Shown in pieces: positions 13,141 through 24,391 of a stretch of DNA of 32,238 nucleotides (positions within the stretch are counted from its first letter, which is position 1; each line of letters starts with the position of its first letter). Made by a program: the position numbers and the translations under genes. The notes under the pieces were generated by a model. The model made no database searches, was not told the DNA's origin, and saw nothing but the letters and a program-made list of their open reading frames with translations. The stretch is from an uncultured bacterium (GTDB lineage Bacteria; Patescibacteriota; Minisyncoccia; Phycocordibacterales; PALSA-1337). The stretch spans positions 78,716 through 110,953 of the forward strand of contig CAWKMY010000005.1 of assembly GCA_963851055.1 (NCBI GenBank). The letters run 5' to 3'.

Positions 13141-13223
13141 CGTACATGAGGGTTTGGGAACTGCCGACGGAGGCGTGGCATCATTGTTCACCTGTTGCGT
13201 GTCGTTGATTTAAGGCCCCTCCA

Positions 13224-14360
13224 CTACTGCGGCCCGATATATTCATTCTTAACCGTATCTTTATGGGCCGGCCTGGCGTATCTGCGTTGGGCCATCAGGA
13301 TCCCGAGAGCCAAAAACTCGGTCATGATGTGCGTGCCGCCATAGCTCATAAACGGCAACGGTGTGCCGGTCACCGGCAAGAGATGGATATTCATGCCCAC
13401 ATTGACCAAAAGGTGGACGATGAAGAAGACGGCCACGCCGGCGCCATACAATATCTCGAAGTTAGTGGCACCGCGCGAAGCATTGACTATGATACGCCAT
13501 ATGATCACGCCATAGAGAACAAAGAATATTAGAATGCCGGCAAAACCCCATTCCTCTGAAAAAGCGGCGAAAATAAAGTCGGTCTGATATTCCGGCAGGA
13601 ATTTGAGGCGAGACTGGGTGCCATAGCCGACGCCCTTGCCGAATAGGCCTCCGGAGCCGATGGCGATTTCCGACTGGTAGGCATTGTAGCCGGCGCCGCG
13701 GATGTCAGAGAGCGGATGGACGAAATTGACGATGCGTTCCTTCTGATAATCCTTGAAGCCAAATGCCCATAGCAGGCTGAATCCTATGGCCACCAAGGCG
13801 ATCAACCCGAACAAGTGCTTCTTGGATATCCCGGAGACCATGACCATGCCGAGCCATATGAGGAACATGATCATGGCCGAACCGAGGTCTGGATGCAGAA
13901 GGACCAGGATGAAGAAACAGAAGGCGTAGACACCGGAGATTATGATGTGACGGACATTGGCGATCTCTATGTGCCTCCTCGAAAAATATTTTGCCAGAAT
14001 GATGACTAGGGCAAGCTTGGCGAAATCCGACGGCTGAAATGAAAAAGCCCCGAAATCGAACCAGTTGGCTGCGCCGTGGGAGACCTTGCCAACCAGAAAA
14101 AGGGCGGCTAGGACAATTATGCAACCGCCGAACAGAGCGGCGGATATAGAGGATAGACGGAGAAATCTGACGTCCGCCGCGGAAACAGCGAAAAACACGA
14201 CCACGGAGACGACTATCCAGAGGAATTGGTGAAAGGCGAAGGAACTGTCTCCGGTGAACGAGTGCATAGTCGACAAGCCAGCCGCCAAAATAGGCAGGAT
14301 AGCCAGAAAGAGGATCCAGTCGATCTTGAAAAAACGCGAGATGCCCGTAGCTTGTTGCAT
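13224..14360 (-). CDS. SEDS-family peptidoglycan polymerase (FtsW/RodA)
   Basis: 378-aa polytopic protein with SEDS-like motifs (QPSDFAKL, EYQTDFIFAAFSEEWGF, LPVTGTPLPFMSYGG). Confidence 0.85.
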   Translation of the reverse strand: MQQATGISRFFKIDWILFLAILPILAAGLSTMHSFTGDSSFAFHQFLWIVVSVVVFFAVSAADVRFLRLSSISAALFGGCIIVLAALFLVGKVSHGAANWFDFGAFSFQPSDFAKLALVIILAKYFSRRHIEIANVRHIIISGVYAFCFFILVLLHPDLGSAMIMFLIWLGMVMVSGISKKHLFGLIALVAIGFSLLWAFGFKDYQKERIVNFVHPLSDIRGAGYNAYQSEIAIGSGGLFGKGVGYGTQSRLKFLPEYQTDFIFAAFSEEWGFAGILIFFVLYGVIIWRIIVNASRGATNFEILYGAGVAVFFIVHLLVNVGMNIHLLPVTGTPLPFMSYGGTHIMTEFLALGILMAQRRYARPAHKDTVKNEYIGPQ

Positions 14361-14364
14361 GGCT

Positions 14365-15120
14365 TCATTCTGCCACAGGCAGGACTTCTATGGAAATGAC
14401 AGCTCCGTTCCATGATGTCGGCCAAGTGAATGGCGCTACAGCCGAACCATAACCTGGTATGCCATCCAATATGGTCTTGGAGAAGCCGAGAGCGTTGCCA
14501 TCCTTGTCATAAAGCACAGCGTATACATCCGTACGACCTATGGCGTAGACTCCTGTATTCTTGAGAGTGACGGAAAGTGAGGCGCTGGAAGAGCTTTCGG
14601 CGTAATTCTTGTCGCCTACGGCTATAGCGGTCAGAGGATCGGCTTGCGATGTCCAATCCGGAGCCGCGGTGAATTCGAATAGGGCTTTGACCGGAATACG
14701 TTTGGCGGTAGAGACGGCTCCATTGAAAGCTAAGGTATTTCTATGCGGCGGTATGGTAATAGTTCCATCGTATTCGGTGATTTCCACCCCTTGATTGTCA
14801 TAGAGGATGACGTGATACGGAACCGCCGATGCACCAACAGAGGCATTTGGGTTAATGATGTAGACGGCGACATTGTAGAGGCCCGGAGCGACTTGTTCCA
14901 ATCTCGTCCAAGCGACGCTAGGCGCCAGGAAGGAATTTGAGCAAAGCCTCTGGCAAGATCCGCCACAGTCTACGCCTGTCTCATCGCCGTTCTTCAAGCC
15001 GTCGAAGCATGTGGGGGCCTTGTAGAACCAGAAAAAAGCCGGCAAGAACACGGCCGCCGCTAGGACGACCACGGTTATGCCGCCATAGAGAAGTTTTCGC
15101 CTTTGGGACCATGATGCCAT
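14365..15120 (-). CDS. membrane-anchored hypothetical protein with a Cys-rich CFDGxxNGDETGVDCGGSC module
   Basis: 251 aa with one N-terminal TM segment. Its stop lies 4 nt before the SEDS gene start. TGaTATAAT lies 7 nt upstream of the ATG. Confidence 0.6.
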   Translation of the reverse strand: MASWSQRRKLLYGGITVVVLAAAVFLPAFFWFYKAPTCFDGLKNGDETGVDCGGSCQRLCSNSFLAPSVAWTRLEQVAPGLYNVAVYIINPNASVGASAVPYHVILYDNQGVEITEYDGTITIPPHRNTLAFNGAVSTAKRIPVKALFEFTAAPDWTSQADPLTAIAVGDKNYAESSSSASLSVTLKNTGVYAIGRTDVYAVLYDKDGNALGFSKTILDGIPGYGSAVAPFTWPTSWNGAVISIEVLPVAE

Positions 15121-15150
15121 CGGTTAAATTATATCATATTGAATACTCTG

Positions 15151-15260
15151 TTCTGGCGGCAAGCTACTTTCGCCCCGAAGGACTATCATCGCCGCAACTG
15201 CGTTTCACTGCCGTGTTCGGAATGAGAACGGGTGGTGCCACAGCGCCAAACCACCAGAAC
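15151..15260 (-). rRNA. rrf: 5S rRNA
   Basis: The minus strand reads ttctggtggtttggcgctgtggcaccacccgttctcattccgaacacggcagtgaaacgc...gccgccagaa, with the conserved CCGAACACGG core and complementary ends. Confidence 0.85.
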
Positions 15261-15273
15261 GGAACATTCAAAT

Positions 15274-15294
15274 TCATACCTCAAAGTAATGCAA
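15274..15294. repeat. 3' arm of the pre-23S processing stem (pairs with 21614-21634)
   Basis: 21-nt perfect inverted repeat tcatacctcaaagtaatgcaa / ttgcattactttgaggtatga bracketing the whole 23S gene. Confidence 0.75.
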
Positions 15295-15555
15295 ACAATG
15301 TGTGATACTAGCGCGATTCGTAGAGTTCCTGATGAGATCGACGGATTAGTACTTCACGGCTCAACACCTTGCGGTGCGTACACCTAAAGCCTATCAACGT
15401 GATCATCTCTCACGGGTCTCGAACGATGCATAATCTTGGGGCTGGCTTCGCGCTTATATGCTTTCAGCGCTTATCCAATCCGAACATAGCTGCCCAGCGG
15501 TGCCGTTGGCACGACAGCTGGTAGACCAGAGGTTCGTTCAATTCGGTCCTCTCGT

Positions 15556-16375
15556 CACATTATCCCCCTATCACTAGGAGTGTAGACTATATCTTTATCC
15601 GTTTTGCCAATTCGGCAAAATGAGGATGTTGGCGTATTACCTATGCGTATCTGCCACCACCTTCAGTTGTGATGACTTTCCAATAGCACATAAGTCCATT
15701 TTCTGGCATAGAGCCATCGAATAAGTCGTTACGGGGTCAAACCTAACATCAGCAACAATTCATTTTTCGTCTTCTTTTTCTTGGTGACGTAATTCTCCTT
15801 CTGAATCACCAGGATGAGATCGACGAGTTTAACGAGTTGCGCATCACTTAGCATCTTGAGTTTAGTCTTCAAAAGGATTTGGCAGGCCTCTTTCAAGGCT
15901 TTTGCTTGAATCCTCTTGAATCTGATATACGGCAACAAACTTGTCAGAATCTCTCTGACCTGTCTGTAACCATTTATTCTCAATTCGGTCATCCCATCAT
16001 TTCTTTTGGAAATATAACCGATATTGAAGACGTCTCTAATCCAATAGAGATCATCTTCGTGTCTGGAATCCTGATAGAAACAGATCGTCGGCATAAATCT
16101 TAGTTTAGATCTATTACCGTCTTTCCGCTTTTTGAGCTGGAGCATAAGGCTCCCGTCACCATCTAGGAATCCCGCGACATATGCATATTTGACATTAGAT
16201 CGACTTCCCACGGTATTGTCTTGAATTTATTGGTCCTCAAGTGTTACATACACTATTGTATCTCTCCCGACGGACCGTCGCAAGAAAGATTATCAACGGA
16301 TACCGATACATTCAAGATTCCACCGTTATTAGCCACATTGTCATCATGGATTACTCCATGAAGTAGCAATACTTT
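15556..16375 (-). mobile_element. group I intron (820 nt) after U2656 (E. coli numbering), in the sarcin-ricin loop
   Basis: Exons read ...gattctagU | intron ...ataatgtG | acgagaggacc, which restores AGUACGAGAGGACC. An S-like element aaagatatagtcta lies at 15583-15596. The junction could shift by 1 nt because of a shared A. Confidence 0.7.
15729..16211 (-). CDS. single-motif LAGLIDADG homing endonuclease, I-CreI-like
   Basis: 160 aa with a GTG start. YVAGFLDGDGSLMLQLKK and IGYISKRNDG...LLPYIRFKRIQAKALKEACQIL parallel I-CreI (YLAGFVDGDGSIIAQIKP ... LQPFLKLKQKQANLVLKIIEQL) as I recall it. Confidence 0.85.
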   Translation of the reverse strand: MGSRSNVKYAYVAGFLDGDGSLMLQLKKRKDGNRSKLRFMPTICFYQDSRHEDDLYWIRDVFNIGYISKRNDGMTELRINGYRQVREILTSLLPYIRFKRIQAKALKEACQILLKTKLKMLSDAQLVKLVDLILVIQKENYVTKKKKTKNELLLMLGLTP

Positions 16376-16438
16376 ACTAGAATCAAACCCCCTCAAGCAT
16401 CAACGCCTGCAGTAGATAGGAGACCAACCTGTCTCACG

Positions 16439-16842
16439 CATGTTACCAACGATTACTCGTTGCATTGGACTATAGCTTAATCCGCTCATTTGATTGAGTG
16501 TGGATCGTTAACGTTTAGTCTCTACGGGCATTGAATCGCAGTAAACCGTAAACGGTAAACTGTAATCAACTTCCCTCGGTATAACCCGCTTTAAACGGGC
16601 TCCACCGAATCTAGTTAACTTGATCTTCTTGTATTACTACAAGAGACCGCCGTGGTTGATTGGTCATTCCTCTCTCTTTACATCATCTCAATGCGATTTC
16701 GCATATGAAATGTTCAATAAAACGAAAATTCTCGAAGTGATTCAGACTGTCGAATATTCAATTCGCAGTCAATGTGACTTCACACATTTACATAGGATTA
16801 ACACTCTCTATGGTCAGCCATCGAAGCATAATTAAATGCTCA
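16439..16842 (-). mobile_element. ORF-less group I intron (404 nt) after U2593, the classic I-CreI / Cr.LSU site
   Basis: Exons read ...gggttcagaccgU | tgagcattt...ggtaacatG | cgtgagacaggttgg. An R-like ccgtagagactaaac lies at 16513-16527 and an S-like aagctatagtcc at 16467-16478. No LAGLIDADG ORF is present. Confidence 0.75.
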
Positions 16843-16874
<32 letters not shown>

Positions 16875-17171
16875 TTGGCGAACAGCCAAACCTTTGGGAG
16901 CTTCTCCACCCCCAGGATGTGGTGAGCCGACATCGAGGTGCCGAACTCCGCCGTCGATATGAACTCTTAGGCGGAACTAGCCTGTTATCCCTAGAGTAGC
17001 TTTTGTCCGATAATCTTCCACCGCATCTAATGCGAATGGTCGGTTCACTTGGCTCCGCTTTCGCGTCTGATCGTCACGTACGACTCTCAGTCAGGCCAGC
17101 TTGTGCCCATACACTATCGCCACGGTTTCCATTCGCGGCTAGCTGACCTTAATAGGCTCCTCCGTTACTCT

Positions 17172-17837
17172 TTAGGCATTTCTGTTACCCATTTTGTTTT
17201 GCATTGAAGGAATTTGTGAAGTATATGGTTCAATCAAATCTCTGAATCTTTCAGCTGATTCTGATTTTATATATAATCTCCAGTATTTTCCTTTTTGTGC
17301 ATGAAGACTTGTCTCGAGTTCAAATTTCTTTTTAAGGGCTTTTTGAACCGATTCAAGGTCTTTCTTACTATATCCAAGGGTATGGATTATGAACGTGTTG
17401 TGTCTATTCGACTTCCACGATCCGTCATCCATAAACCATATGGCTAATGCCATTGGATCCAGTAATTTGTTGATCAATTTAGGAATTTCTTTTTTACCAT
17501 GAGGATAGAATTGTTGAGCATAAAATCTAAATGCGCCGTGAGAATATGTATCAAATAATACATACCCATAGCCATTCTTCTTTACCCTCGAACGAATTCC
17601 ACCTGGTATCCATTCCTTAAACTGATCGTGGATCCATTCTAGATAGTCTCTTTGCGCTACTTGATGTTCAATCTTGAGCCGATAAGTTTTACCCTTATCT
17701 TGCGTCTCAAGGTGACCATCACCGAGCAAAGTACCGACTAAAATAGATCTTTGAACATCATTCAGCGTGAGAGTCTTTTTCAACTCTCGAATTTCTTTTG
17801 TGTTCATTGGGTTCTTACTATTACTAGTAAGCTTCAT
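17172..17837 (-). CDS. double-motif LAGLIDADG homing endonuclease, I-SceI-like
   Basis: 221 aa. LVGTLLGDGHLETQDKGKTYRLKIEH and LDPMALAIWFMDDGSW...LKKKFELE parallel I-SceI ([39 protein letters not shown]...LRNKFQLN). The last 5 nt, including the TAA stop, lie in the 3' exon. Confidence 0.85.
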   Translation of the reverse strand: MKLTSNSKNPMNTKEIRELKKTLTLNDVQRSILVGTLLGDGHLETQDKGKTYRLKIEHQVAQRDYLEWIHDQFKEWIPGGIRSRVKKNGYGYVLFDTYSHGAFRFYAQQFYPHGKKEIPKLINKLLDPMALAIWFMDDGSWKSNRHNTFIIHTLGYSKKDLESVQKALKKKFELETSLHAQKGKYWRLYIKSESAERFRDLIEPYTSQIPSMQNKMGNRNA

Positions 17838-18382
17838 GTCGCCATGAAGATCGGACTATATCATCATCCCCTGCAAAATTAATCGCATTGGATGGCTAGC
17901 GTATAGTCTCTGAGGGTTCAAGCATATGTATTGAATAGTGGAGGAGAGCCCAGGCATGGCACGCCATGAGCTCTCCAAAGTGGATCGTAAACTTCTGGCA
18001 AGTATCCGTTTTAACCATTCACGGGTTGGATCGACCCGGTTTTGCTGAACGGATGTTTCCACGACCTCGCCGAGCTGCGTCAGAATTCGCATCATACTTC
18101 TCAACGGATAGCAAATCCGCCAATCCATACGGTAGATCACCCTGACCAACACTCCTAAAGTCACTCTCCACTATTCAATACACATACAAGTCTTCCCTGC
18201 TGATCCTCCGCACTTCAAGATTTTTACTTTGTTCAAGTACTTGAAGATACTCGGATATTCCAGCATATAGCTAACTTTTCAATGGCCATTGCTGACCAAG
18301 GTCCTCCTTTTTTATTTGTTTCGAGATGACAAATCTCTTGAGGCGCCACGGTTCGAGGATTCGAATAAAATCCAAATCCTCG
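17177..18382 (-). mobile_element. group I intron (1206 nt) after U2262
   Basis: Exons read ...ggggcgctatccU | cgaggattt...acagaaatG | cctaaagagtaacgg. P (atatgctggaa, 18258-18268), Q (atcagcagg, 18196-18204), R (cctcagagactatacgc, 17899-17915) and S (atgatatagtcc) elements are all visible. Confidence 0.8.
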
Positions 18383-18724
18383 AGGATAGCGCCCCACTAA
18401 AACTGTCCATCATATACTGTCTCCCGGCGTTTATGCCGCCGAGGTTAGAACATACAAAATTCAAGAATGGTGTTTCATCGACGGATCAATACTCCCCGAA
18501 AGGAACATCTCAAATCCTCCCATCTACGCTACGCATGAATCACGTATGGTCAATACAAAATTACAGTAAAGCTTCTAGGGTCTTTTCGTCTAACTGCAGG
18601 TAACCGGCATCTTCACCGGTACTGTATTTTCACCGAGCAAGTCTCCGAGACAGTTCTCCAGTCATTACACTATTCAACGCGTCGGAACTTACCCGACAAG
18701 GAATTGCGCTACCTTAGGATCGTT

Positions 18725-19503
18725 CTTTTCTTGGATAGCTGTGTAAAACTTTTATATTACTATTTAACAATTATGCTCGTGTTAGCTTCATGTCGCCATG
18801 AAGATCGGACTATATCATCATACTTTGTTCGTCGGTACCAATTTGTGAACAAAATCTGTCTTGCGTATAGTCTCTGAGGATTTTTCTGTTATTAATTCGG
18901 CTATGTTGTACTTTCTCTTTCTGCCTTTGCCTTCATTGAGAGTTTCTCTCAATCGTACAATTTTCTCGAATCCTTCTTTTGTTAGATGCTCCTTTCTAGC
19001 CATCTTTTTGACTATTTCAGAGAAAATCAAGAAGTTCTTCTTTTTATTGGCCGAAAGAAAAATAAAACGGTTGAAAAATGGAATCACCTTTTCCATCAAG
19101 GAATCGATATTCGTCACTTCAAAATAAACTACTCCATCAGATCTTTCGCGTAATGTTCCGCATCCAAATACTTTCTGAATGCGTTCGAGAATCACACGAT
19201 CTTTCTGGGAGATGTTGAATGAAGCGAGTACTTTCCATTTTCCTACATAATCCCGTCTTTTGATCATCGAGATGTTGAAGCTTCCTTCACCATCCGTGAA
19301 TCCGGCAATATAATTGCCGATAGCGAGATCTATGTTATTAAGCCAATGATTATTCATGGCTTAATTCTAACAGAAATCTTTCCTGCTGATTGTCCGCGTT
19401 TCAAAATTTTCACTACTCGAATTGCTTCAAGTGAGTATTTGAACATGCTCGGGGTTTCCAGCATATGGCAAGATTTATTATCGTAACTACAACGATCAAG
19501 TCT
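18725..19503 (-). mobile_element. group I intron (779 nt) after U1917 (helix 69 loop)
   Basis: Exons read ...gtcgtaactaU | agacttgat...ccaagaaaaG | aacgatcctaaggtagcg. P lies at 19456-19466, Q at 19382-19391, R at 18863-18879 and S at 18807-18818. Confidence 0.8.
18818..19357 (-). CDS. single-motif LAGLIDADG homing endonuclease, I-CeuI-like
   Basis: 179 aa. IAGFTDGEGSFNIS, FNISQKD and LMEKVIPFFNRF parallel I-CeuI (LAGFLEGEASLNIS, FNVTQH, LEEKVIPFYEQY). Confidence 0.85.
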   Translation of the reverse strand: MNNHWLNNIDLAIGNYIAGFTDGEGSFNISMIKRRDYVGKWKVLASFNISQKDRVILERIQKVFGCGTLRERSDGVVYFEVTNIDSLMEKVIPFFNRFIFLSANKKKNFLIFSEIVKKMARKEHLTKEGFEKIVRLRETLNEGKGRKRKYNIAELITEKSSETIRKTDFVHKLVPTNKV

Positions 19504-20983
19504 ATAGTTACGACCGACATTCACCAGGGCTTATAACAGTCACCATGTAATCTTGCGACTACACAACGCCGTTATTTGACCTTCTGGCATTGGTCAAGTG
19601 TCACCCCCTATACATCCTCTTGCGAGTTCGCAGGGAGCTGTGTTTTTGTTAAACAGTTGCCAGAGATACTTTAGCTGCGGCCCCTTCCAACAAAATAAAT
19701 TGTAAAAAAGGGCAAGCCTTATTCCGAAGTTACGGCTGCTTTTTTGCCGAGTTCCTTGGAGACCTCTCACTCGTTCGCCTAGGTCTACTCGACCTAACCA
19801 CCTGTGTCGGTTTGCGGTACGGTTTACGTGAAATTATGCTTAGAAAATTTTCTTGGAAGCGTGCTTTATCCTATTTCGCCTTGCGGCATTTTCGCTCTAC
19901 TTGGGGATCATATCGAAATGAGCATCCGGATTTGCCAGGACACACCCTTATAGCACGAACGTTAAATCCAATTATACGCAGGATATACTACGCTTCGTCC
20001 TTCCATCGCATTTCACGCAAGTCACGGAATATTAACCGTGTATCCATCGGGTGCGGCGTTCGCCATCCCCTTAGGACCGACTAACCCTTGGCTGATATAC
20101 ATTGCCAAGGAAACCTTGGTTTTTCGGCGTGCGGGAATCTCACCCGCATTGCGGTTACTTGTGCCAACATTCTTACTTCGCAACGCTCCACTGTGGGTCA
20201 CCCCTTCAGCTTCAATGCGATGCGAATACTCTCCTACCGCTCCGTTTTTCCGAAGAAAAACGAAGCCCTCAGTTTCGGTACGACATTTGAGCCCCGATTA
20301 TCTGCGGCGCGGAATTTCTCGATGAGTAAGCTGTTACGCTATTTTTGAATGATGGCTGCTTCTAAGCCTACATCCTCATTGTCGAAGAAATTCCACCACC
20401 TTACGTACACTTAATGTCGATTTAGGGACCTTAAATTGAGATCCGGGCTGTTTCCCTTTTGTCCAATGGAGCTTAGCCCCCACAGACTAACTGCCGGATA
20501 ATTACCATACGTATTCGGAGTTTGATAGGTCTCGTGAGCTTTCGCCCGTTCGAGACCTTCCAGTGCTCTACCCCGTATGGGTACATCCGACGCGAACCCA
20601 AAAGTTCTTTCGGAGAGAACCAGCTATTACCAGATTCGATTAGCTTATCACTCCTTACCACACGTCATCCGAGAGTTTTGCACGGCTCACCGGTTCGGGC
20701 CTCCATCCCCCTTTCGGGGAACTTCACCCTGCGCATGGCAAGCTCATCTGGCTTCGGGTCTTTAGCAAACTACGAGCGCCCTGTTCAGACTCGGTTTCCC
20801 TGTGACTCCGTCCTCGCGGACTTAGTCGAGCAGCTTGCTAAAACTCGTTGGCTCATTCTTCAATAGGCACGCCATGACGGTGCTACACAATAAGCATCAA
20901 AAAAATGACGCACATTGTGTAGCACCGCTCTGACTCCTTGTAGGCATATGGTTTCAGGTCTATTTCACCGCCCTTTCGGGCTG

Positions 20984-21023
<40 letters not shown>

Positions 21024-21613
21024 TAGAAAAATATTTAGACTTGCCGGTTAGTTCCGGCGGATTCCCCCGAGCTATTCGTTTCCCGGGGTACTTAAGAATA
21101 GAGACAAAGAAGATCCATTATTTTCAGATAAGGGGCTATCACCCTCTGGGGCTCGTCTTTCCAGACGATTCTCCTAATAAAAGATTTTTTGACTTCTCTG
21201 CTATAAATAGCACGTCTCTACCTTGCAACCCTCAACCAAAATCGCATCGCGTTTCCGCTTCTGCCTTTCGACAGGGCGGAAGCCGCCCTGCGATTTTGGT
21301 TAAGTTTAGTCTTCTCCGCGTTCGCTCGCCGCTACTGACGGAATGCATGTTTGTTTATTTTCCTCCTGGTACTGAAATGTTTTACTTCCCAGGGTACGCT
21401 CCTCTATAGAGTAACTATAGAAGTCGTCGAGGTTCACTCGACGGGGTTTCCCCATTCGGACATCTTCGGATCAAAGGTTGCTCGGCACCTCCCCGAAGCG
21501 TATCGCCGCCACGCCGCGTCCTTCATCGCTTTTTCTAGCCAAGGCATCCACCATACGCCCTTAATTTCCCATCAGGAAATCTAAGAACCGCTACTTAATA
21601 TCACTTACATTGC

Positions 21614-21634
21614 TTGCATTACTTTGAGGTATGA
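21614..21634. repeat. 5' arm of the pre-23S processing stem (pairs with 15274-15294)
   Basis: 21-nt perfect complement of the 3' arm. Imperfect pairing continues inward (tatcac..acattg on both sides). Confidence 0.75.
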
Positions 21635-21782
21635 GATTGTAAAACTGCTGTCGTCCGGGTATTCCGATTCGCCGGAAAAAAGAAAAACCGCTTCTTTAGC
21701 GGCATGAGCAACACTCCATCTCTGGGGTATGGCTATGGCCGCTTTAGACTTGGGTTTTTCATAATCATTCTGTGTGGTGGCT

Positions 21783-21810
21783 AGTATATATTAAGCTGAA
21801 ATAAAGTCAA
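21783..21810 (-). promoter_or_regulatory. candidate sigma70-type promoter for the 23S-5S unit
   Basis: On the minus strand: TTGACT (21805-21810), 16 nt, TATACT (21783-21788). About 200 nt upstream of helix 1. Confidence 0.5.
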
Positions 21811-21887
21811 TGGGTTAGGCCTATACGCCCGGTTGGGGATAAGATGGGGAGAATTGAACTGTCTGATTTTTGAGGAACCTTCAGATA

Positions 21888-21915
21888 TTGCATTTTCCAT
21901 TTGTCTTGTTAGAAT
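21888..21915 (+). promoter_or_regulatory. candidate promoter of the toxin-antitoxin pair (leaderless geometry)
   Basis: TTGCAT, 16 nt, TAGAAT, then 6 nt to ATG 21922. No SD. Confidence 0.45.
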
Positions 21916-21921
21916 ACGACC

Positions 21922-22122
21922 ATGAATATACGCATGAAAGTCAGAAAGGATAATAAAGAACGGACGGTCTCCGTCAGCTTTGACGCAAACCGTTTCGAAC
22001 GAGTGGCGGCTGAATTTGGTATGTTCAATAAGAGTTTTCTCCAAAGCATCGACAGAGCTGAGCGCGATATTCGCGCTGGCCGTATAACCTCTGTCGGCAG
22101 TCTCAAAGAGCTTCGCGCTTAA
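21922..22122 (+). CDS. putative type II antitoxin
   Basis: 66-aa ORF ending 5 nt before a RelE/ParE-like gene. Assigned by position; I do not recognise the family from sequence. Confidence 0.55.
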   Translation: MNIRMKVRKDNKERTVSVSFDANRFERVAAEFGMFNKSFLQSIDRAERDIRAGRITSVGSLKELRA

Positions 22123-22127
22123 ATCCT

Positions 22128-22409
22128 ATGTGGAAGATTTCTGTAGCCGATGAATTCAAGCGGCGCTATAGATTGTTACCCACTGAAGTCCAAAAGAAAG
22201 CAGAGAAACAAGAACGATTATTCCGTCATAATCCATTTTATCCGTCGTTGCATACGGAAAAGATCGAGCCCAAAGGTAAACAGGTTTGGACGATTCGTAT
22301 TGACGTTAGCTACCGCATAGCTTTCCGGTTTCTGGACAAGGATACAGTTGTATTCCTGACATGCGGCACGCATGATTGGATCTATCGGGTTTGGTTGAGA
22401 AATAATTAG
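22128..22409 (+). CDS. RelE/ParE-family type II toxin
   Basis: 93 aa. The pattern W.IRI...YRIAFRF...TVVFLTCGTHDWIYR is typical of RelE/ParE-fold toxins. Confidence 0.7.
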   Translation: MWKISVADEFKRRYRLLPTEVQKKAEKQERLFRHNPFYPSLHTEKIEPKGKQVWTIRIDVSYRIAFRFLDKDTVVFLTCGTHDWIYRVWLRNN

Positions 22410-22461
22410 CCGTGTGACCAACTCGGGGCTCAATTGGAAATGAACCAAGTTTATTTCAGAT

Positions 22462-22645
22462 ATCTACAAACTGTAGATGACTGGGAATTGGAGCCCCAGT
22501 TGTCGACAATTTGTCGATGACTTACTTTCAGTTGTTTACAAATTGAAAACAACTGGAAGTCAAAACCAACCTTCTACAATCTGTAGACAGTTCAGTTGGT
22601 CACAATTTGTAACCAACTCTTCTCAATTGGTGGAAATGAGAAGAG
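22462..22645. repeat. array of six palindromes and three phased direct repeats in a convergent intergenic region
   Basis: Coordinates are in the findings. It contains TCTACA-N3-TGTAGA twice, tcgacaaTttgtcga, a 25-bp near-perfect palindrome, and CAGTTG-N3-ACAAwTTG three times at 32- and 64-bp spacing. Confidence 0.65.
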
Positions 22646-22651
22646 TTCGTT

Positions 22652-23188
22652 TCAACGGATAAATTGGTACCTCAAGTCGTTCGTATTGCCGGAACGCGTC
22701 AATCTTCCATCTCTGGCTAATGCATCCAAATATCTAGAGGCAGTCGCATGCGAAATCCTCAATAGTTTTTGCGCGTCTTCATTAGTAATTTTTCCCTTCT
22801 TCTGCGCCATCAGCATTAGTTTGTCCAGCTTTTTCTGCTTGTTGGTTTGGATCTTGGCTTGTGCCTTTAGAAGAAGGCCATGAATAAAATTCGGCTGGGT
22901 TTGGTCGGTGGCGATAGGCGCAGGTTGCACGGGAATAGTCGGCGGTTGCTCTTCCGTCGGCACAGGCTCGGAAATCGGTTGAGAAGGTTCAGTCGGCGAT
23001 TCAGTGTTTGGCTCGCTTGGAATAGGTCCCGCTTGAACAGGCTCGTCAATGATTGGTGGTTCCGCAATGGGTGGCGTTTCAGTAGTCGATTGCTCCGCTT
23101 CCTTGGCAGGCATTGGCGATTCAATAGCAGGTTCAGATGAAGCTGGTTCGACAATTGGTGTAGCACTTTGTGGAGTTTCGTCGTCCAT
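22652..23188 (-). CDS. Pro/Glu-rich protein with a C-terminal winged-helix DNA-binding domain
   Basis: The track start 23197 is TTG. ATG 23188 gives MDDETPQS... The C-terminus ITNEDAQKLLRISHATASRYLDALARDGRLTR looks like an HTH. TATAAT lies 8 nt upstream of the ATG. Confidence 0.6.
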   Translation of the reverse strand: MDDETPQSATPIVEPASSEPAIESPMPAKEAEQSTTETPPIAEPPIIDEPVQAGPIPSEPNTESPTEPSQPISEPVPTEEQPPTIPVQPAPIATDQTQPNFIHGLLLKAQAKIQTNKQKKLDKLMLMAQKKGKITNEDAQKLLRISHATASRYLDALARDGRLTRSGNTNDLRYQFIR

Positions 23189-23249
23189 TGATGTCAATTA
23201 TAAGGGAAAATGGGGCTTATTTTAAGGGTGGATTTCTGGCCGATTTGGC

Positions 23250-23278
23250 TTGACAGATAGGTTCAATAGTGCTATAAT
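23250..23278 (+). promoter_or_regulatory. perfect consensus sigma70 promoter
   Basis: TTGACA (23250-23255), 17 nt, TATAAT (23273-23278), about 90 nt upstream of ATG 23369. Confidence 0.7.
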
Positions 23279-23368
23279 TACACCAGAGAATACGTAAGAT
23301 TCTGTGAGCCAACGTGTTGGGCTCAGAAAACATCCGACACTGCACATTCAAATAGAAAGTTCCACAAG

Positions 23369-23746
23369 ATGAAAAATAACGTCATCACTCACGCCCTCAT
23401 GCTCCCTCTCGGCACTGATGGGAGTCTCGAAATTATTGGCACAAAGGAAGGACGATTCAATGAAAGCTCGGCCGTGTTCCTTGCGAAAGGAGACATGGCT
23501 CGGTGGCTCTGTCACTCACAGCCTGACTTATTCAAGAAGGTCATCATGACTTGGGCACCGGATCATTCCGCTACGGCCATGCTTATCTTCGAATACACGA
23601 TAGGTAGCCCGTTGCGTAACCCCAGAAAATTGCTTAAATCCGTCCGCAACAAACTGATGCAAGCGGTCCGACGTCAGCAATGTGAGTTCGAGGAGGAAAT
23701 GCACGAGGCGACTGGCGGGAATCTTCCCACTGATCATTGTGTATGA
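23369..23746 (+). CDS. hypothetical protein (125 aa)
   Basis: ATG ORF downstream of the consensus promoter. No family recognised. Confidence 0.5.
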   Translation: MKNNVITHALMLPLGTDGSLEIIGTKEGRFNESSAVFLAKGDMARWLCHSQPDLFKKVIMTWAPDHSATAMLIFEYTIGSPLRNPRKLLKSVRNKLMQAVRRQQCEFEEEMHEATGGNLPTDHCV

Positions 23747-23900
23747 GTTGGTGGAACTCTTTCTAATAATCCACGGGGAATCTATACTGATTCCCCACTC
23801 AACTAGGGCCACGATTCACCGATTGGTGATATGGCGGCCCTTGAGAGCTTTGCTCTTTGGAAAATAAAATCAACAACCATAAAACGAAGAAAGGCAATCT

Positions 23901-24260
23901 ATGCGAACTAATGTAGTGGTGGTCTGGAATGAAAAGAGTTGCTGGCCAATCAGCATTCTCGAAATTCTCGACAATTGGAAGACGGACTGGAAACCTGAGG
24001 TTGGTGGAGCAATACCAACAGAGGTATGTTGCAATCCCGGGTTGTGTGTTGGCACTGCTGAAGGAAAAATCGTCGCAGTGCTTACACCAGAAGAGGAGGC
24101 GTTATTCGACTCCTTGGAAAACCTCGGCAATCTATTCCAGAGCGATTGTGGTGTGAAGTGTCTTCAGGGACTACTGGAAAAGTCTATCAGCATTGCGACC
24201 GGCATCCCAATTCCGGAGTTTAGAACCAGTGACTCAAAGGACACACAGAAGACTGGTTGA
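23901..24260 (+). CDS. hypothetical Cys-containing protein (119 aa)
   Basis: ATG ORF preceded by GAAAGG. No family recognised. Confidence 0.5.
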   Translation: MRTNVVVVWNEKSCWPISILEILDNWKTDWKPEVGGAIPTEVCCNPGLCVGTAEGKIVAVLTPEEEALFDSLENLGNLFQSDCGVKCLQGLLEKSISIATGIPIPEFRTSDSKDTQKTG

Positions 24261-24347
24261 TGGTAATCCGCAATATCGTCCCCGCTCACAAAAGCCGCTT
24301 GGCATTTGTTGAGCGGTTTTTGATACCTGAATTATCTGTAAATAAAA

Positions 24348-24373
24348 GCGACCCCTTTCGGGGCCGCTTTTTT
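24348..24373. terminator. bidirectional intrinsic terminator
   Basis: gcgacccc-tttc-ggggccgc is flanked by an A run upstream and T6 downstream, between convergent genes. Confidence 0.7.
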
Positions 24374-24391
24374 CTAACCAAAATCTATAGA

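Follow-up and report, generated by a model that had tools for sequence, protein, structure and literature searches.

The window, a 32,238-nt stretch of DNA, comes from a CPR bacterium (Patescibacteria, Parcubacteria-type) with a single 23S rRNA gene, which has a 5S rRNA gene at its 3' side and is interrupted by four group I introns (Table 1). Using BLAST against E. coli 23S rRNA, together with direct reading of the minus strand, we placed the limits of exons and introns and found the introns after E. coli positions 1917, 2262, 2593 and 2656, which bears out to the base the four positions given in an earlier note on this DNA. Joining of the exons recovers ...CUAGU↓ACGAGAGGACC... and ...GACCGU↓CGUGAGACAG... 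(↓, insertion point), the E. coli reference landmarks A2602 and A2660/G2661 fall at their expected places, and in all four introns the final base of the 5' exon is U and that of the intron is G. The 5' flank at 2593, previously read as AACGU, is ACCGU in the window. The L2656 intron splits the sarcin-ricin loop, with U2656 as its 5' and A2657 as its 3' neighbour, and, as the rRNA gene is single-copy, its splicing must be efficient. It lies, like the adjacent L2593 intron, in domains V/VI of the 23S rRNA gene.

Table 1. Features of the rRNA genes and of the L2656 intron in the window (positions are those of the window; exon and site numbers are those of E. coli 23S rRNA)
Feature	Position	Strand	Basis
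5S rRNA, 3' of 23S rRNA gene	15258..15151	-	Rfam 5S match
23S rRNA gene with four group I introns	15325..21574	-	Rfam LSU_rRNA_bacteria, BLAST vs E. coli 23S; 3' end approximate
Exon up to 1917	ends 19504	-	BLAST, direct reading
L1917 group I intron	19503..18725	-	Rfam Intron_gpI 36.1 bits
LAGLIDADG_1 ORF of L1917 intron, 179 aa	19357..18818	-	Pfam
Exon 1918-2262	18724..18382	-	BLAST, direct reading
L2262 group I intron	18381..17177	-	Rfam Intron_gpI 45.3 bits
LAGLIDADG_2 (I-SceI family) ORF of L2262 intron	17837..17172	-	Pfam, I-SceI match
Exon 2263-2593	17176..16843	-	BLAST, direct reading
L2593 group I intron, 404 nt, ORF-less, I-CreI homing site	16842..16439	-	Rfam Intron_gpI 38.7 bits, junction GACCGU↓CGUGAGACAG
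Exon 2594-2656, 63 nt	16438..16376	-	BLAST, direct reading
L2656 group I intron, 820 nt	16375..15556	-	Junction CUAGU↓ACGAGAGGACC, covariation, Rfam Intron_gpI 24.1 bits on 3' part
Exon 2657 onward	starts 15555	-	BLAST, direct reading
Internal guide GCUA (P1)	16364..16367	-	Direct reading; pairs with exon UAGU, U·G pair at splice site
P2 hairpin UCAUGGA GUAA UCCAUGA	16344..16361	-	Both-side changes in 5/7 pairs
P3 5' strand UGGC (partner GCCA, 15633..15630)	16332..16335	-	100% cells paired, double changes in 2/4 pairs
P4 5' strand ACGGUG (partner UACCGU, 16215..16210)	16321..16326	-	Invariant, fully paired 22/22; direct reading
Invariant 11-mer CUUGAGGACCA in P5 extension	16231..16241	-	Invariant alignment columns C140-A150
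P6 5' strand AAGUCG (partner CGACUU, 15728..15723)	16201..16206	-	Nucleotide conservation at ORF ends
Single-motif LAGLIDADG homing endonuclease gene, 160 aa, GTG start, looped out of P6	15729..16211	-	Pfam, PDB matches, AlphaFold2, Foldseek
P7 5' strand GGACU (partner AGUCU in AAGAUAUAGUCU, 15595..15584)	15693..15697	-	97% cells paired; Rfam J8/7-P7 alignment
P7.1/P7.2 extension between P7 and P3', IA-type feature	15642..15692	-	P7.1: 6/6 pairs with double changes, 95% cells paired
P8 hairpin	15597..15627	-	Outer stem 94% cells paired, double changes in 3/4 pairs
P9.0 (ACA/UGU), P9 hairpin, terminal G at 15556	15556..15583	-	P9.0 double changes in 3/3 pairs, 100% paired; P9 100% paired

The L2262 ORF, whose stop codon lies 5 nt into the 3' exon, matches I-SceI with an E-value of 1e-25, in keeping with the I-SceI-like label given to it before. 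At L1917 the position and the presence of a LAGLIDADG_1 ORF hold, but the I-CeuI label does not, since I-CeuI is absent from the 60 best PDB matches of this ORF, which comprise I-OnuI/I-SmaMI-type domains, I-Vdi141I and I-TnaI. The suggestion that these two enzymes had undergone the same shift of site as that proposed for the L2656 enzyme now looks weak: among bacterial introns, L1917 is a classical site with an endonuclease clade of its own (Haugen 2007, PMC1995217), and the L2262 insertion recurs in a Taylorbacteria genome, with an enzyme 77% identical, and also, ORF-less, in an organelle-like LSU gene.

Against Rfam RF00028 the L2656 intron scores 24.1 bits (E 0.001-0.006), and only over the part 3' of its ORF, while the other three introns score 36-45 bits; none of the four reaches the gathering score of 50, which suggests that the one Rfam model has low sensitivity for the introns of this gene. 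As Rfam alone could not certify the L2656 intron at 24 bits, we built its structure and tested it by covariation in an alignment of 22 introns, using slid partner columns and 500 shuffles as controls. Pairing was observed in 87% of cells, compared with 36-48% when the partner columns were slid, and both sides had changed in 52 of the 74 pairs, with the observed values reached by none of the 500 shuffles. Helices P2, P3, P7.1, P8, P9.0 and P9 covary, and P4 and P7 are invariant. The splice ends in the window read CUAGU↓A...GUG↓ACGAG; TTGCTA around the guide is kept in all aligned introns, and the terminal G likewise in all aligned homologues. Covariation supports an IA3-like ribozyme with the ORF looped out of P6, and the intron has both the P7.1/P7.2 extension between P7 and P3', a feature also reported for L2593 introns (Haugen 2007, PMC1995217), and the short P2 of that type. 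When introns stripped of their ORFs were aligned locally as nucleotides, nothing beyond the universal GAUAUAGUC element emerged and intron types could not be told apart; a covariance model of the 3' half of the L2656 intron (R1) was used instead. This model scored L2500/L2504 and L2593 introns at 35-45 bits, compared with 10-21 bits for L1917/L1931/L1951 introns.

Both ends of the L2656 ORF are embedded in the ribozyme. The GUG start codon shares bases with the 3' strand of P4, the 5' strand of P6 lies within codons 2-4, and the 3' strand of P6 follows directly after the stop codon. At the nucleotide level, GUGGGAAGUCGAUC at the ORF start is kept in most of the 22 introns, with GUCAAUC in four, and CCGUAA-CGACU at the ORF end is kept in 21 of them.

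The encoded protein has one motif stretch in its 160 aa and scores 38.3 bits with Pfam LAGLIDADG_1 (cut-off 23.1). Its best PDB matches by phmmer are I-MsoI, I-CvuI and I-CreI, and with an AlphaFold2 model (pLDDT 90.5) the best 44 Foldseek matches in PDB are all I-CvuI, I-CreI or I-MsoI (TM 0.73-0.82, E 1e-12). These searches point to an I-CreI-type protein, as had been claimed from the letters of the DNA, and the model predicts the alpha-beta-beta-alpha-beta-beta-alpha fold of I-CreI. Residues D19, Q47 and K99 align with the catalytic residues D20, Q47 and K98 of I-CreI, and an alignment across the L2656 and I-CreI-type families shows no variation at D19 and K99 and almost none at Q47. The GTG start is conserved among relatives. 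With dN/dS at 0.05-0.26 (median about 0.12) the ORF is under purifying selection, which would also fit a maturase role. A palindrome scan showed the symmetry of the target DNA to be weak, with at most 5/11 half-site positions matching compared with 7/11 in the native I-CreI site, and any target register or cleavage position proposed for this enzyme is therefore a guess.

A search with the protein gave 2,598 matches at E<=1e-3, and over 5,117 clusters matched a profile at E<=1e-20, with hosts among Taylor-, Yonath-, Zambryski-, Nomura- and Chisholmbacteria. In 27/27 related GTDB-species loci, introns of 770-869 nt carry the ORF and are flanked by ...CTAGT and ACGAGAGGACC; four subfamilies at 40-48% identity, one of them from Chisholmbacteria (Microgenomates), are also at L2656, which is the site of every relative examined, to identities as low as about 40%. 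The window copy is an ordinary member of a very large and deep CPR family always at L2656. The closest long contig, from a groundwater CPR bacterium, is syntenic with the window, and its rRNA exons are 86-94% identical; it carries an L1931 intron and is without L1917 and L2262, while L2593 and L2656 are common to both. Because the L2656 intron is common to nearly all relatives examined, recent homing of the window copy can only be inferred.

The view that 2656 had not been described as an intron site does not stand. Tsurumaki et al. 2024 (J Bacteriol, PMC11270868) count position 2657 (23IS14) as one of 14 sites at which CPR 23S genes frequently carry insertions, there mainly with LAGLIDADG_1 ORFs. 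The window element fits 23IS14 in its CPR host, its insertion at 2656/2657, its group I-like nature and its LAGLIDADG_1 ORF, and it corresponds to that site. The earlier note had itself named catalogue entries with the same endonuclease clade as evidence against its proposal, and such entries exist; the claim of a novel intron site fails, the site having been catalogued in CPR bacteria in 2024. The article does not mention the sarcin-ricin loop and, in the text available, contains no ribozyme model for 23IS14. A literature search on L2656, and on the sarcin-ricin loop together with group I introns and homing endonucleases, returned no relevant report, and the 2656 site is absent from an archaeal group I intron survey.

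We read L2656, with a probability of about 0.85, as a mobile IA3-like group I intron with a homing endonuclease gene in the sarcin-ricin loop, an ordinary member of its CPR family, and L2593 as an ORF-less group I intron, as throughout related genomes. The L2656 protein would dimerise like I-CreI, and the dimer would bind intron-less sarcin-ricin-loop DNA around TCTAGT↓ACGAGA and cut both strands near the insertion point, presumably with 4-nt 3' overhangs. The break would be mended with an intron-carrying copy as template, which would install the L2656 intron, and the ribozyme would excise itself from the pre-rRNA, restoring the essential loop. We give about even odds to the further proposal that the L2656 enzymes are natural I-CreI-fold homodimeric meganucleases for sarcin-ricin-loop DNA that share an ancestor with the L2593 enzymes I-CreI, I-CvuI and I-MsoI.

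These three form the nearest other family with a determinable insertion site (25-34% identity; best Foldseek matches). In a neighbour-joining tree, which is rough, midpoint-rooted and without support values and was used solely for the separateness of clades, the L2656 enzymes form a clade apart from, and not nested in, the L2593 clade. Membership of the enzyme in the L2593-specific I-CreI clade was considered and rejected, given this separate clade, the level of identity and the location at 2656 of the enzyme and its relatives examined. Sequence comparison suggests a sister family of the L2593 enzymes, linked to I-CreI by deep ancestry. The idea of an I-CreI relative retargeted to the sarcin-ricin loop survives in that sense, but the enzyme belongs to a large site-faithful clade of its own. 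Word-indexed search with I-CvuI returned relatives of at least 50% identity (with two weaker exceptions) and none from the L2656 family, and the relationship was scored by local comparison and exhaustive search of representatives; when 60 retrieved members of the I-CvuI family were compared with the window protein, 59 scored 51-74 bits, and both of the two checked for site are at L2593.

One route to such kinship is an ancient ectopic move, in which the L2656 intron and endonuclease derived as a unit from the L2593 unit, came to lie 63 nt downstream at an early stage of CPR evolution and later acquired a new DNA specificity; we hold this as a tentative possibility, somewhat short of even odds. 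In its favour, no enzymes of solved structure are closer in sequence and fold than those of L2593, the I-CvuI-family scores and sites are as given above, in both units the gene lies in P6 and directly follows a shared AAUACCG(A/U)GGGAAG junction, and P7.1/P7.2 and the ACGCCAAC...GAAGAUAUAGUC core elements occur in both (with Haugen 2007). Closely related enzymes at different sites are also reported by Tsurumaki et al., who suggest ectopic transposition (PMC11270868). The identity of 25-34% and the separate, non-nested clade argue against such a move. Moreover, R1 scores L2500/L2504 introns as high as L2593, so that the donor site is not identified, and L2593 is nearest only among the site-determined families, with several nearby families falling outside.

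We consider it unlikely that a maturase function is the main reason for retention of the ORF, or that the ORF encodes an inactive endonuclease, in a vertically inherited intron whose homing has ceased. Presence of the intron in all 27 related species loci, where empty target sites may be rare, would agree with such a history, as would the embedding of the ORF ends in P4 and P6, and some LAGLIDADG proteins, such as I-AniI, do act as maturases. However, the equivalents of the catalytic Asp, Gln and Lys are conserved, the intron complement differs between close relatives, and I-ShaI, a related CPR enzyme that belongs to a different 23S site, cuts its target in vitro (PMC11270868).

Recent retargeting in the window lineage, with an I-CreI-type gene leaving the 2593 intron for the sarcin-ricin loop, is very improbable, even though the two introns are 63 nt apart and the gene-less 2593 intron adjoins the I-CreI-like gene. 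Thousands of relatives down to 40% identity, in both Parcubacteria and Microgenomates, are already at L2656, and the window L2593 ribozyme is without P7.1/P7.2 and scores 18 bits with the L2656 model. The 2593 intron was correctly described as lacking an endonuclease ORF, as any ORF in it falls short of 60 aa; about 14 L2593 introns of related genomes whose flanks could be read are likewise ORF-less, none with an endonuclease gene, and tblastn for remnants of such a gene in the ORF-less L2593 introns of the window and related genomes found none. Loss of an endonuclease at 2593 is plausible, and the lack of remnants speaks neither for nor against it. That the insertion is instead an intervening sequence whose removal is not followed by ligation and leaves the 23S rRNA in fragments is hardly credible: sequences removed by RNase III do occur in some bacterial 23S genes (PMC11270868), but the covarying group I core, P1, P9.0, the terminal G and the U at the 5' splice site speak against it, and a break at this point would destroy the sarcin-ricin loop, which is essential.

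As a discovery the L2656 intron adds little, since rRNA introns with LAGLIDADG genes are known to be characteristic of CPR bacteria and the site is already catalogued. Its use lies in the insertion inside the sarcin-ricin loop, whose sequence is among the most conserved in biology and which the catalogue paper does not mention; in a very large family, under purifying selection, as a candidate source of meganuclease specificity on an I-CreI-like scaffold; and in an L2656 unit that resembles the L2593 unit closely enough for studying site change of homing elements. If active, the enzymes would add a natural specificity that is new to the engineering scaffold studied best so far, and would illustrate how specificity can change greatly once an element has moved ectopically; in principle they could recognise the rDNA of very many organisms.

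Among known systems, 23IS14 shares with the window intron its host group, position, group I nature and Pfam family, with no essential difference. The L1917, L1931, L1951 and L2593 rDNA introns of Thermotoga, Synechococcus, Coxiella and Simkania (Haugen et al. 2007, PMC1995217) likewise carry LAGLIDADG genes, with several endonuclease-bearing group I introns per bacterial 23S gene, each enzyme clade tied to its site and ORFs reaching into ribozyme helices, although 2656 and 2262 are absent from those compilations. I-ShaI ('Ca. Shapirobacteria', 23IS7; PMC11270868), the only CPR rRNA-intron endonuclease known to have been characterised biochemically, is also a single-domain LAGLIDADG_1 enzyme, a homodimer by cross-linking that cuts its own insertion-site DNA in vitro; it differs in its site (1917-1931 region) and clade and is 42% identical to I-CeuI. 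The homodimeric I-CreI, I-CvuI and I-MsoI of L2593 introns in green-algal chloroplast LSU genes have in common with the L2656 enzyme a length of ~160 aa, a single motif, the predicted fold, the catalytic Asp/Gln/Lys equivalents and a gene in P6 of an IA3-type ribozyme with P7.1/P7.2. The two differ in sequence and clade, in the L2656 site lying 63 nt downstream inside the sarcin-ricin loop, and in target DNAs that are unrelated apart from a central GTAC(GA), and the L2656 enzyme, unlike the I-CreI group, has a GUG start overlapping P4.

Using Rfam we located on the minus strand an interrupted bacterial 23S rRNA gene, in several pieces, together with a 5S rRNA gene, while neither tRNA nor 16S rRNA was detected by Rfam in the window, so that the 23S-5S pair is unlinked to a 16S gene here. 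An E. coli 23S gene (L001:1183-4086, 2904 nt) was used as the numbering reference, with BLAST placing the A2602 and A2660/G2661 landmarks as expected, and insertion boundaries were set by BLAST against this gene and by direct reading. In all four insertions a U closes the 5' exon and a G closes the insert, and joining the exons regained conserved rRNA sequence. Coordinates assigned in an earlier note were thereby found exact to the base, the sole slip being AACGU as the 5' flank at 2593, where this organism has ACCGU. Upstream, ~2.8 kb separate the 23S start from a mechanosensitive-channel gene (window 21575-24391), compared with ~0.45 kb in L030, a groundwater CPR contig, and an ORF of 181 aa in this region matches MarR/winged-helix proteins weakly, under the Pfam cut-off.

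Insertions and associated genes at the 23S rRNA locus
Feature	Window position	Strand	Remarks	Method
Insertion after 1917	19503..18725	minus		BLAST + direct reading
Insertion after 2262	18381..17177	minus		BLAST + direct reading
Insertion after 2593	16842..16439	minus		BLAST + direct reading
Insertion after 2656	16375..15556	minus		BLAST + direct reading
ORF in 2656 insert	16211..15729	minus	160 aa; GTG start; LAGLIDADG_1, one motif	
5S rRNA	15258..15151	minus	after 23S	Rfam

By sequence, the top solved relatives of the protein encoded in the 2656 insert are I-MsoI, I-CvuI and I-CreI, which all belong to L2593 introns, followed by I-OnuI-type domains, and the earlier observation of an I-CreI-like endonuclease intron in the sarcin-ricin loop is confirmed. 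Likewise, the 221-aa product of the 2262 insert is, as had been proposed, I-SceI-like: it is assigned to LAGLIDADG_2 and matches I-SceI at E 1e-25. The 1917 insert encodes a 179-aa LAGLIDADG_1 protein that had been called I-CeuI-like, but its best PDB matches are I-OnuI/I-SmaMI-type domains, I-Vdi141I and I-TnaI, and I-CeuI is absent from the best 60. No ORF of ≥60 aa was found in the 2593 insert, in line with its description as ORF-less. The LAGLIDADG_2 ORF of L2262 crosses the 3' splice site (window 17172-17181, minus strand), with the intron ending in ...AAUG and the UAA of exon CCUAAAGAG serving as stop codon, and this read-through is also kept in a Taylorbacteria genome (L002, about 1565-1585) whose enzyme is 77% identical. 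A 102-aa ORF upstream of the endonuclease gene in the same intron (window 17856-18164, minus strand) overlaps the ribozyme core, has no Pfam match and is probably not a gene.

The Rfam group I model gave 36-45 bits for the other three inserts and 24.1 bits for the 2656 insert, covering only the part 3' of the ORF, and because the latter score is below the gathering score of 50 we tested the structure directly. In an alignment of 22 homologous inserts with the ORF removed, a model comprising P2, P3, P4, P5/P5a/P5b, P7, P7.1, P7.2, P8, P9.0 and P9 has 87% of cells paired, a share that sliding the 3' partners by 1-3 columns lowers to 36-48%, and both-sided changes occur in 52 of 74 pairs, with the observed values reached in 0 of 500 shuffles. 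Covariation is clean in P2, P3, P7.1, the outer P8 stem, P9.0 and P9, and P4 and P7 are invariant. P1 is formed between GCUA, conserved in all introns, and exon UAGU, and the 3-bp P9.0, with compensatory changes in every pair, directly precedes the terminal G. Most of the 22 introns keep the nucleotide sequence GUGGGAAGUCGAUC at the ORF start (four show GUCAAUC instead), and CCGUAA-CGACU after the stop is kept in 21. Since the GUG start lies within the 3' strand of P4, and AAGUCG pairs with CGACUU as P6, the entire gene is an insertion in the P6 loop. An 11-nt stretch of the P5 extension, CUUGAGGACCA (window 16231-16241, minus strand), is invariant in all 22 introns, lies downstream of a mostly conserved GGUCC and includes GAGGACC, which is found in the 3' exon too; it may form an internal helix, make a tertiary contact or mimic the exon.

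When one genome was scanned for each GTDB species, 27 loci were recovered whose proteins are 63-77% identical; the hosts are Taylor-, Yonath-, Zambryski- and Nomurabacteria and other Parcubacteria. At each of these loci ACGAGAGGACC, the 3' exon, is downstream of the ORF, and the 5' exon ends in ...CTAGT wherever the upstream flank is readable. A large protein database returned 2,598 matches at E<=1e-3, of which the best 120 all have 67-93% identity and mostly span the full length of about 160 aa, and an exhaustive search of 50%-identity representatives returned 633 at the same threshold. The next-nearest full-length groups share 40-48% identity; one relative from each of four was located on long contigs and all four are at 2656, including one from Chisholmbacteria (Microgenomates), and a profile of these groups matched >5,117 clusters at E<=1e-20. 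The L2656 enzymes are a very large, old family, constant at one site.

An AlphaFold2 model of the protein, built from 70 sequences, has a mean pLDDT of 90.5, and its best 44 Foldseek PDB matches are I-CvuI, I-CreI and I-MsoI (TM 0.73-0.82), followed by I-PanMI, I-TnaI and I-Vdi141I. In a joint alignment with I-CvuI-family proteins D19 and K99 are invariant and Q47 nearly so, which we take to be equivalents of I-CreI D20, K98 and Q47. Pairwise dN/dS across 22 genes, excluding helix-overlapping codons, is 0.05-0.26 (median 0.12, with synonymous sites often saturated), which indicates that the gene is maintained by selection. We infer that the protein has endonuclease activity and dimerises, and predict its intron-less target DNA to be TTGATTCTAGT followed, across the insertion point, by ACGAGAGGACC. 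The best symmetry of this target covers 5 of 11 half-site positions, compared with 7 of 11 in the native I-CreI site; its centre is the insertion point, its middle bases are GTAC, and it is not a dependable guide to the cleavage register. The central GTACGA of the target is presumably identical to that of the palindromic I-CreI target C1221.

Where flanks could be read in related genomes, ~14 of these carry ORF-less L2593 introns (263-591 nt), six have intact sites and none has an endonuclease gene at 2593, and tblastn with 180 LAGLIDADG proteins found no gene remnant in the ORF-less introns. The L2593 intron of the window has the UACCGAGGGAAG and CCCGUAGAGACU elements of gene-bearing L2593 introns but is without their P7.1/P7.2, and a reasonable reading of these sequences is that a gene would have been lost long ago. 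A Zambryskibacteria 23S gene (L024, about 1000-2275) carries one more intron, inserted after 2584 and containing a LAGLIDADG_2-like ORF; between it and the L2593 intron lies a micro-exon of 9 nt, UCAGACCGU (2585-2593). L030, from Hainich groundwater, is the closest long relative; set against window 13200-21600 it is syntenic, and its rRNA exons show 86-94% identity. Its introns are at 1931, 2593 and 2656, with none at 1917 or 2262, and the window has none at 1931, so there is turnover of the intron set among close relatives. Between the window's L1917 and L2262 introns three segments match: 41 nt at 97.6% identity (18781-18821 and 17827-17867, minus strand), made up of GAUAUAGUCC and the hairpin after it, 96 nt at 72%, and 26 nt at 88%. 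The ORFs of these two introns come from separate Pfam families and are differently placed, and the sharing suggests a common ribozyme origin or recombination between introns. Furthermore, in an organelle-like LSU gene (L034) with an I-CvuI-family enzyme at 2593, positions 2262 and 2263 are separated by an ORF-less insertion of 357 nt (1389-1745), so site 2262 is not confined to CPR bacteria.

Of 60 retrieved I-CvuI relatives, 59 score 51-74 bits against the window protein, and the two that were checked are both at L2593 in organelle-like LSU genes. Identity between the L2656 and I-CvuI families is 25-34%, and a rough neighbour-joining tree sets the L2656 clade apart from that of I-CreI, I-MsoI and I-CvuI. 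The P7.1/P7.2 and short P2 of the L2656 intron are traits given for L2593 introns by Haugen et al. 2007 (PMC1995217). A covariance model of the intron 3' half gave 40-54 bits for distant L2656 introns, 42.5 bits for one organelle-like L2593 intron and 40-45 bits for L2500/L2504 introns, with 10-21 bits for L1917, L1931 and L1951 introns and 18 bits for the window's own L2593 intron. Judged by these scores, the L2656 ribozyme is of the IA3-like kind seen at L2593 and L2500, a test that names no donor site. Organelle-like L2593 and L2656 introns both have the junction AAUACCG(A/U)GGGAAG just before the gene, P7.1/P7.2, and the ACGCCAAC and GAAGAUAUAGUC elements, which makes it plausible that both intron-plus-gene units descend from one ancient ancestor; however, introns of the L2500 type reach equal scores and, among neighbouring protein families, several have no assigned site, and we therefore place this shared ancestry short of probable. 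That the element moved recently out of the adjacent 2593 intron in this lineage is effectively excluded.

Literature searches found nothing linking the sarcin-ricin loop, group I introns and homing endonucleases, and the 2656 site is absent from an archaeal group I intron survey. L1917, L1931, L1951 and L2593 are classical bacterial sites (PMC1995217). Tsurumaki et al. 2024 (PMC11270868) describe a survey of 348 CPR 23S genes that defined 14 frequent insertion sites, with group I introns at 23IS9, 10, 11, 13 and 14 given as previously unreported in other bacteria. In that survey LAGLIDADG_1 predominates at 1917, 1931, 1952, 2593, 2604 and 2657 (23IS6-8 and 12-14), same-site enzymes cluster, with some close relatives at different sites, and the sole enzyme tested, I-ShaI, comes from 23IS7. 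Position 2656 had been put forward as an undescribed site, but 2657 (23IS14) is catalogued there in CPR bacteria, mainly with LAGLIDADG_1; by the criterion set in the earlier note that claim fails, since the L2656 element is an ordinary member of this catalogued CPR family.
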